Shown one piece after another: positions 62,475 to 62,630 of a stretch of 64,000 nt of DNA; the stretch's first letter is position 1, and every line of letters starts with the position of its first letter. The position numbers and the translations under genes are program-made. This stretch comes from Escherichia phage KEP4, in the sequence record PP047754. One strand, given 5' to 3'. The notes below the pieces were generated by a model. That model was not told where the DNA came from and did no database searches. It saw nothing but the letters and a program-made list of their open reading frames with translations.

Positions 62475-62630
62475 ACGCAAATCGAAGTTCTCTGGGCTTA
62501 ACAGGTTCGACCCAACATGTTGTATATCGCCTAACTTACTCATGGGACGGCCACTTCTGTGTACAGACCTTGAGGGTTAAAAGATATACCCAGAGAACTT
62601 CGATTTGCGTTGTGGGGGCAAACCCCCCAC
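62475..62630. repeat. 22-bp perfect long-range inverted repeat (stem enclosing 92 nt) plus adjacent 7-bp G/C hairpin
   Basis: 62475-62496 ACGCAAATCGAAGTTCTCTGGG pairs with 62589-62610; then GTGGGGG CAAAC CCCCCAC at 62612-62630. Confidence 0.8.

Follow-up and report, generated by a model that had tools for sequence, protein, structure and literature searches.

What does a long, perfectly paired helix do in a stretch of phage genome that encodes no protein? The window examined here (the whole stretch of DNA that was analyzed, 64,000 nucleotides [nt] of Escherichia phage KEP4, record PP047754) is 100% identical, in reverse orientation, to Salmonella phage SFP10 (NC_016073; genus Kuttervirus, family Ackermannviridae). 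In our comparisons, "SFP10" refers to the sequence of the window, and module coordinates are window positions. Between window positions 61696 and ~64158 lies a gap of about 2.46 kb without open reading frames (ORFs), and this gap houses the element in question, which we call module d (62475 to 62610, minus strand; 136 nt), a 92-nt interior closed by a 22-bp helix. A preliminary description of the window had offered two answers, namely, a deliberately stable RNA scaffold or a DNA-level element, such as a miniature inverted-repeat transposable element (MITE)-like repeat, a protein-binding site, or a recombination or homing site. We consider it very probable that selection maintains module d as a structure in RNA read from the minus strand. 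We further hold, with somewhat better than even confidence, that it is a structured small-RNA module in the transcript of the tRNAs and noncoding RNAs (ncRNAs), its perfect helix being an RNase III-type processing stem or an end-protecting stem.

A 2-kb stretch here was called gene-free in 2011 (PMC3184105), and the earlier paper on phage PhiSH19 placed the tRNAs within a "5 Kb non-coding region" (PMC3220722). The terms tRNA, non-coding, and intergenic do not appear at all in a review of the family from 2024, and our literature searches returned no paper explaining the gap region or describing RNAs from it.

Conservation of the module d helix by pairing

An inverted-repeat search confirmed the perfect 22-bp stem enclosing 92 nt that had first been pointed out at this locus, with arms at 62475 to 62496 and 62589 to 62610 that are 100% complementary. 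Read on the minus strand, an extra G·U pair lengthens the helix to 23 bp. In this RNA sense, the 5' arm (62589 to 62610) is ACGCAAAUCGAAGUUCUCUGGG and the 3' arm (62475 to 62496) is CCCAGAGAACUUCGAUUUGCGU, both supported by the inverted repeat and by covariation with each other and the former also by the fold. The segment is unusually stable on either strand (z = -6.4, minus; z = -6.3, plus), a stability that none of 200 shuffles equaled, and the arm sequence matches only its own two places in the window (0.00 expected). Six perfect stems of at least 13 bp within 260 nt occur in the 64-kb window, four of them inside 62019 to 63365, and the 22-bp stem is the longest. The longest stem in 20 shuffles of the window measured 11 to 14 bp.

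Three genera (Kuttervirus, Taipeivirus, and Agtrevirus) and two variants from metagenomes (L037/L055 and L040) have the stem, but with different arm sequences, as illustrated by SFP10 (5' arm, ACGCAAATCGAAGTTCTCTGGG; 3' arm, CCCAGAGAACTTCGATTTGCGT), KpS110 (5' arm, CACAAATCGAAGTGCCCTGAC; 3' arm, GTCAGGGCACTTCGATTTGTG), and EspM4VN (5' arm, CGCAAAGTAGAGTTCTCTGAAC; 3' arm, GTCCAGAGGACTCTACTTTGCG). The helix comprises 22 to 24 perfect bp in Kuttervirus, and 19 to 21 bp in Taipeivirus; in Agtrevirus it has about 22 bp, one or two of which are wobbles or mismatches. Across a covariation set of 28 sequences, 17 of them distinct (an earlier 12-sequence set and RNAalifold were also run), the 22 stem pairs are formed in 94.8% of 368 cells, and 9 of the 22 pairs have changed on both sides. 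None of 500 shuffles reached the observed paired fraction, the number of cells changed on both sides, or the covariation score, while 9 of 500 reached the pair count; sliding the partner columns lowered pairing to 18 to 45%. In Agtrevirus, a run of four adjacent pairs has been exchanged (UCGA/UCGA to GUAG/CUAC), a change that could have been a single replacement event. Nucleotide identity across genera is 74 to 77% in the element block, similar to the 71 to 85% of the flanking block, coding genes included. We also built a covariance model (CM) of module d and sought extra diversity in metagenome and viral collections by way of the neighboring protein family, which roughly 280 Ackermannviridae genomes carry; these scans added only the two new module variants named above.

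These patterns bear directly on the DNA-level reading, in which the repeat would be a cruciform or palindrome serving replication, packaging, recombination, homing, or the binding of a protein. In favor of this reading, SFP10 has a perfect palindrome on both strands, the breakpoints of mosaicism between phages coincide exactly with the foot of the module d stem, and an HNH endonuclease gene adjoins tRNA-Met in KpS110, as has been reported for CBA120 (PMC3184105). Deposited genomes are also linearized inside the gap, several of them from one study, and the record of phage heyday carries an annotated 21-nt repeat_region (L058, 440 to 460) inside the stretch that matches the element. However, the arms are free to change in sequence as long as pairing is kept, when a protein site would conserve its sequence, and conserved hairpins occupy the interior. 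Moreover, a 92-nt spacer is very unfavorable for cruciform extrusion, and the stems of the gap show a strong excess of G·U over A·C pairs (58:9), described below. A DNA-level function is, in our judgment, improbable. Physical genome ends were considered and rejected, as the start points of the several deposited genomes that begin in the gap look like the annotator's choice. A retron msr/msd was rejected too; the inverted repeat is present, but the flanking ORFs contain no reverse transcriptase or other enzyme domain.

A MITE-like or other mobile inverted-repeat element would likewise show terminal inverted repeats around a short interior, and the presence of module d does vary among Ackermannviridae genera. 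Nevertheless, a search of 50,697 phage records found exactly one matching place in each of 246 records, and no match was found in 5,426 Escherichia coli genomes. A pattern scan of IMG/VR returned only known relatives and 4 chance hits, and one of GTDB genomes gave 9 hits, about as many as chance would produce, among them unrelated palindromes in a metagenome-assembled genome of Chlamydiae. The CM search recovered no paralogue, modules c and e of the same gap (see below) included, and the flanks (CACA/ACGC at one end and GCGT/ACTT at the other) contain no direct repeat and thus no target-site duplication. Where the module is present, its position is syntenic, and its arms covary at 9 of 22 positions. 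Searches for further copies of the arms thus found none in the window, in relatives, or in E. coli, with bacterial hits at chance level; presence does vary among relatives, but always at the syntenic position. With one copy per genome, covarying arms, synteny, and no E. coli copies, the DNA-level, MITE-like, and homing suggestions of the preliminary description are not supported, and a mobile element in particular is so improbable that we set it aside.

A protein-coding role fares no better. Indels of 5, 1, 1, 8, and 5 nt distinguish the interiors of the lineages. In all lineages checked, stop codons interrupt five of the six reading frames, and only SFP10 has the sixth frame open. In the records of phages Menlow and May (L005, 1955 to 3968; L014, 5128 to 7290), the gap is filled with "hypothetical proteins" of 30 to 90 codons on both strands, lying over covarying stems. 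Given the lineage indels and stopped frames, the small ORFs annotated across the gap are not credible; recognizing the modules has the practical value that such spurious ORFs, as in Menlow and May, are being annotated over them.

Inside the helix, MFE (minimum free energy) folds computed for each lineage over the 92-nt interior (62497 to 62588, minus strand) suggest a Y shape with a long irregular arm and a hairpin on the 3' side. The predicted long arm consists of UAUAUC/GAUAUA, followed by AACC/GGU, with a CAC-loop-GUG hairpin on top, and the predicted 3'-side hairpin has a G-rich loop (GGGUCG). Equivalent hairpins are predicted in Kuttervirus, Taipeivirus, and Agtrevirus, and the stretches CUUAA, ACA, and GGG are invariant. 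Because the MAFFT and CM alignments shift these short hairpins by one column between lineages, there are no reliable pair counts for the interior. Rfam 15, searched with the window and eight related loci at gathering and permissive thresholds, contained no family for module d; the sole weak matches were to generic microRNA-precursor models and were driven by the long stem (MIR781, 25 bits versus a threshold of 88). ARAGORN, also with relaxed settings, and the Rfam tRNA model detected no cloverleaf or T-arm at 62475 to 62610, where only the degenerate GGGUCGAACC was seen.

Strand, probable transcript, and possible processing of the helix

If the helix is an RNA structure, then it should be possible to tell from which strand it is read. 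Because module d alone offers few informative wobble pairs, we pooled all long stems (at least 15 bp) in the gap of seven phages and scored G·U and A·C pairs on equal terms. Read on the minus strand, these stems contain 58 G·U pairs versus 9 A·C pairs, with the same direction in every genome, counts in which orthologous stems recur and which are therefore not 58 independent events. The G+T content of the minus strand is 0.502, and the bias is therefore not compositional. Such an asymmetry is not expected from a palindrome in duplex DNA, which is thus disfavored, whereas a role in single-stranded DNA may be compatible with this test taken by itself. The minus strand is also that of the tRNAs and, as described below, of the STnc100-like hits and of a tmRNA-like tag frame.

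The first canonical tRNA downstream of the ncRNA gap is tRNA-Met(CAT) (61620 to 61695, minus strand). The other flank consists of SFP_0168 and SFP_0167, both small and hypothetical genes, followed by the divergently transcribed baseplate gene gp6; the minus strand carries all of the tRNAs and both small genes. A terminator scan of the minus strand found no site between ~63400 and 60059, and the only good intrinsic-terminator-like site downstream of the gap follows tRNA-Ser (60037 to 60059, minus strand; L001, 4460 to 4438) and presumably marks the end of the transcription unit. In Menlow and May, too, a terminator has been annotated at this end of the region, following the tRNA cluster. On the grounds of the same-strand tRNAs, the lack of a terminator before 60059 to 60037, and the strand bias of the wobble pairs, module d appears to lie inside a long minus-strand transcript. 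The suggestion of a deliberately stable RNA scaffold is thus supported by compensatory substitutions in three genera, a wobble bias toward one strand, and a terminator-free stretch on the tRNA strand.

The same evidence speaks to the idea that the element is either a neutral relic of a decayed tRNA or tmRNA region or an antisense RNA read from the plus strand. The gap is rich in degenerate tRNA-like sequences, one hairpin of the interior (GGGUCGAACC) looks like a damaged T-loop, and the wobble evidence within module d alone is nearly balanced. A relic, however, would not be expected to show compensatory maintenance in three genera and coding-like levels of conservation, and an antisense RNA is at odds with the minus-strand orientation indicated by the tRNAs, the tag frame, the STnc100-like hits, and the wobble bias of the region. 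We regard both forms of this idea as unlikely.

How might a selected RNA helix of this kind be used? RNase III of the E. coli type cleaves essentially any uninterrupted helix that reaches about 20 bp, its standard substrate, and rRNA operons and the early RNA of phage T7 are examples of polycistronic precursors cut at such stems. The module d helix, as continuous double-stranded RNA, has this length. We propose it as a processing stem because the helices of the gap cluster around two A-form turns, the size of an RNase III substrate. A long minus-strand transcript would start near SFP_0167, cross the 2.4-kb gap and the tRNA genes, and end at the terminator near 60040. Within it, module d (~136 nt) would fold into a Y-shaped interior held together by a perfect RNA duplex of two turns, and this closing helix would be cut by host RNase III. 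Cleavage would sever the polycistronic precursor at module d, separating the upstream and downstream RNAs, and might leave the interior as a small RNA with a blunt-ended, fully paired stem resistant to exonucleases. We put RNase III processing of the d helix, taken as a mechanism in itself, at close to an even chance.

A different use of the same structure would be a stable, trans-acting small RNA in which the helix is not cut and provides a functional surface or clamps the ends. Such an RNA might, for instance, sequester or decoy a host or phage protein that binds double-stranded RNA or is related to tRNA, possibly in counter-defense. The structural evidence is the same for this proposal as for a processing stem, and the invariant interior stretches CUUAA, ACA, and GGG also speak for it. 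The island of RNA elements around module d is also rich in translation-related look-alikes (tRNA-like pieces, the tmRNA-like tag, and a T-arm within a 20-bp stem in EspM4VN), and the EspM4VN type of architecture recalls Y RNA/YrlA and T4 species 1 RNA. On the other hand, a perfect 22-bp helix is expected to be cleaved in E. coli or Salmonella unless it is shielded, no partner protein gene is evident among the neighbors, and there are no Rfam hits to Y RNA, YrlA, 6S, or similar RNAs. We therefore consider an uncut small RNA possible but distinctly the less probable use. The interior may nonetheless act in trans, e.g., by binding or decoying a host or phage protein, and the processing-stem and protein-binding or decoy ideas are not exclusive.

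Several observations weigh against the interpretation of module d as a selected RNA processing module. The covariation is carried by only three or four lineages and thus represents few independent events. Counted within module d alone, wobble changes amount to about 5 sense G·U events versus 2 A·C, and the structure of the interior is a predicted one. Depending on RNase III antideterminants, the helix could be a protected clamp instead of a cleavage site. Finally, the CM did not find module d in Limestonevirus or Miltonvirus, and Yersinia phage CAU_YEP3 is also without it; on account of these absences, the module is accessory and not essential. In CAU_YEP3, the whole tRNA and ncRNA region is gone (L012, 5073 to 5537), the Vi01_177 homolog being followed by 460 nt and then the next structural gene, and in Limestonevirus (Dickeya phage XF4, L011) the region is much reduced. 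The island as a whole is therefore likewise accessory within the family.

Stem modules across the gap

Is the helix an isolated feature? The gap position is syntenic in Kuttervirus, Taipeivirus, and Agtrevirus, lying between tRNA-Met (tRNA-Ser at the gap edge in Agtrevirus) and the Vi01_177 homolog, and BLAST comparisons show a mosaic in which some blocks occur in all three genera and others of 100 to 300 nt are present or absent. The gap contains at least six stem modules, a, b, c, d, h, and e, all on the minus strand and interspersed with the tRNA-like pieces and the tmRNA-like tag frame, and stem lengths across it cluster at 15 to 24 bp. The 18-bp (62019 to 62036/62079 to 62096) and 13-bp (62761 to 62773/62875 to 62887) inverted repeats that had been associated with the 22-bp stem are both real, count among the four long stems inside 62019 to 63365, and do belong with it, being stems of the sister modules e and c, respectively.

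Hairpin a (63622 to 63658) has 17 bp, including 3 G·U pairs, and is nearly invariant in Kuttervirus, Taipeivirus, and Agtrevirus. Module b (63301 to 63365), just upstream of the tmRNA-like tag frame, is a helix of 15 to 17 bp with a loop of 30 to 35 nt; it reads CUGUUUGAGUCCUGG in SFP10 versus CUGUUUGGGCACCAGAC in Vi01, each with a matching partner arm. Module c (62758 to 62890) has a 19-bp closing helix around a 95-nt interior and shows covariation of its own, although its variation consists mostly of wobble changes. Module e (62017 to 62098), a 20-bp helix with a 42-nt interior, shows 5 compensatory pairs among 22 across 9 phages. Additional modules are found elsewhere, with stems of 22 and 20 bp in Vi01 and of 23 and 20 bp in Serratia phage KNP4.

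Module h (62282 to 62481; ~200 nt) has a closing helix of 15 to 16 bp (UUUGCGUACUUGAGAG/UUCUCGAGUUCGCAAA) that surrounds four hairpins, and 16 of its 64 predicted pairs have changes on both sides. The 5' arm of module h overlaps the final 6 nt of the module d 3' arm, with which the closing helix of module h shares 6 to 12 nt, and the shared nucleotides covary with both partners, which hints at sequential or alternative pairing. The interior of module h is only 28 nt long in phage May, with the stem kept.

Directly 5' of module d, in the RNA sense, is a G/C-rich hairpin (62611 to 62631, minus strand). What had been described as a G7/C7 hairpin does exist there, but the label was loose: the stem has 8 bp (T-G-T-G-G-G-G-G/C-C-C-C-C-A-C-A) with five G-C pairs and a 5-nt loop. 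It belongs to a 147-nt block (62611 to 62757) that is found in SFP10-type Kuttervirus and in Agtrevirus and is absent from Vi01-type Kuttervirus and from Taipeivirus. Its variation is confined to the loop, and hence it provides no covariation evidence. The hairpin is not a terminator because no U-run follows it on either strand (minus-strand tail, AACGCAAAUCG; plus-strand tail, ACGGCUACUUCUUUAAC), and it was not called in the terminator scan.

At the module c position of EspM4VN (L007, 3169 to 3291, minus strand), there is a 20-bp perfect stem whose base (ACACAUCUGUGA) resembles the module c stem of SFP10. Its interior differs, comprising a perfect tRNA T-arm (TCCGG-TTCGAAT-CCGGA) and three more hairpins, and it matches no Rfam family. 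This interior swap and the mosaic junctions at the d stem base indicate that the modules behave as separate, exchangeable RNA genes, and their cassette-like exchange is most simply explained by RNA genes recombining in the ordinary way. Across this stretch, RNA structure is being selected.

Outside the gap, between tRNA-Asn and tRNA-Ser, we observed a 14-bp stem with a 44-nt loop (~60738 to 60809, minus strand; L001 sense, 9192 to 9263). Its arms differ, with the stem kept, among Kuttervirus, Taipeivirus, Agtrevirus, and Limestonevirus (UCUACCACCGCGUG, UCUGGAACCCGGUU, UCUGCCGCUGCGUG, and UCUACUGUCACGUG).

Related systems and neighboring RNA elements

Does module d resemble a known RNA? Species 1 and species 2 RNAs of phage T4 (rnaC and rnaD; 139 and 119 nt) are small, stable noncoding RNAs on the tRNA strand at the end of the phage tRNA cluster, a setting similar to that of the 136-nt module d. 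Work of the 1970s by Paddock, Abelson, and Robertson reportedly established species 1 RNA as an early, specific substrate for RNase III. However, neither has a sequence or Rfam relationship to module d, and rnaC is an enlarged tRNA fold with a canonical T-arm, whereas module d is without recognizable tRNA features and has a much longer, perfect closing helix. The RNase III stems of rRNA stalks and T7 early RNA likewise place a helix of about two turns beside structured RNA in a polycistronic transcript, and the intervening sequences of Salmonella 23S rRNA are also stem-closed inserts of ~90 to 150 nt. T7 sites differ in having internal loops that direct single-strand cuts, whereas the module d helix is perfect and its cleavage is a proposal from sequence.

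Other likenesses are more distant. Y RNA and YrlA also have a long stem formed by the 5' and 3' ends around a structured, tRNA-like domain, and the EspM4VN module c, with its T-arm in a 20-bp stem, is similar in this respect; module d itself lacks a bulged Ro-site helix, a T-arm, and a D-arm and has no Rfam hit to these RNAs. No TROVE/Rsr domain was found among the neighbors of the element, which is the part of the genome that this search covered, and many hosts of these phages are not known to carry Rsr. More generally, Pfam and PHROGs searches of the neighboring proteins revealed no RNA-related function. GOLLD and ROOL are, like the modules of the gap, unannotated and strongly structured phage RNAs beside tRNA clusters, but each is one large fold, whereas the gap consists of independent modules of 70 to 200 nt that are gained, lost, and swapped separately and have no Rfam match to them. 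STnc100/PasD (RF02076) is a phage-borne small RNA with a Taipeivirus copy in the same gap, and module d itself has no STnc100 match. The closest functional analogs are thus T4 rnaC/rnaD and the RNase III stalks, with Y RNA/YrlA and GOLLD/ROOL alike in architecture or context only. Module d belongs to no described family and represents a new family among the structured small RNAs encoded beside phage tRNA genes.

Once explained in this way, the helix itself is unremarkable, and its value is as an entry point to an uncharacterized RNA island in a much-used phage family, the Ackermannviridae (ViI-like phages) being widely applied in biocontrol and in the detection of Salmonella and E. coli O157. 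A gap once called gene-free can now be split into discrete, testable modules, the flagged helix standing out most clearly among them. Should these prove to be small RNAs released by processing, they constitute a new set of phage ncRNAs beside tRNA genes, a niche so far known to hold only the T4 species 1 and 2 RNAs and GOLLD/ROOL, none with an understood function. We speculate, doubtfully, that a phage tmRNA-like RNA, tRNA-like minihelices, and long-stem modules form one RNA island that is comatured by host RNase III and, as a set, usurps or shields translation and ribosome rescue in the host or decoys RNA-targeting defenses. If so, a new system of several RNAs would exist, and the 22-bp helix would direct the maturation of one of them.

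The tmRNA-like component of this island is a candidate tag frame at 63240 to 63205 (minus strand), where AAUAAUC is followed by GCU AAU GAU AAC ACG UUC CUG GCA GUA GCU UAA, encoding ANDNTFLAVA and a stop. It sits behind a typical resume context (ACCACAAAAAUAAUC preceding GCU AAU GAU). Variants of the tag (ANDDVVLMAA, ANDNAYLAVA, ANDNAYLMVA, and ANDSEVLMAA) occur in Kuttervirus, Taipeivirus, Agtrevirus, and Miltonvirus, with orthologous frames at, e.g., L010 5980 to 6012, L003 (sense) 2409, and L013 5856; Limestonevirus lacks the frame. Between SFP10 and Vi01, the frame shows synonymous changes only. The permuted-tmRNA model of Rfam scores 20 to 30 bits on the tag region versus a threshold of 47, a weak but consistent signal, and ARAGORN with default settings misses it. 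Neither a search for the acceptor 5' strand nor BLAST against an E. coli tmRNA sequence placed an acceptor domain for the frame.

Degenerate tRNA-like elements lie on the minus strand at 62889 to 62965, 63010 to 63100, 63430 to 63499, 63915 to 64004, and 61702 to 61805. Relaxed ARAGORN picks the first, third, and fourth of these, and the remainder were recognized with relaxed ARAGORN or by eye. Good T-arms are present at 62889 to 62965 (GUGUGG-UUCGAUU-CCGCAC), 63010 to 63100 (GAAGG-UUCGAGU-CCUUC), and 63430 to 63499 (GGG-UUCGACU-CCC), and acceptor stems are readable in the latter two; the D and anticodon arms are aberrant. The element at 62889 to 62965 ends in GGCUCCA immediately before module c, and several of the elements coincide with mosaic blocks that are present in some phages and absent from others.

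In Taipeivirus, a homolog of STnc100 lies between modules d and e on the tRNA strand, scoring 48.7 to 49.7 bits versus a gathering score of 47. Homologs were found at L004 2453 to 2666 (minus), L006 2454 to 2667 (minus), and L015 7286 to 7499 (plus), with a partial one at L010 6644 to 6753. SFP10 is without this insert, and no STnc100 hit was obtained in the window even at E values up to 10. The family is known from Stx and Fels-1 prophages (10.64898/2026.05.13.724894; PMC12370729). In the window, a 36-nt block (62143 to 62178; RNA sense, GCCAGCCUCGUUUGGUCCGAGCGAUAGAGGACAAGU) is much more conserved between Kuttervirus and Taipeivirus (97% identity) than the sequence around it, and in Taipeivirus it adjoins the start of the STnc100-like RNA. 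The block contains the 9-mer UGGUCCGAG, which we take to be the same 9-mer as in the Ro-binding strand of human Y3 and Y5 RNAs, a coincidence that may be due to chance.

Upstream of the island, SFP_0167 (L001, 8560 to 9132; 190 amino acids) is only ~63% identical between SFP10 and Vi01, members of the same genus, and its homologs in Dickeya and Ag3 phages are 76 to 78% identical. This identity pattern indicates recombination across genera at the locus.

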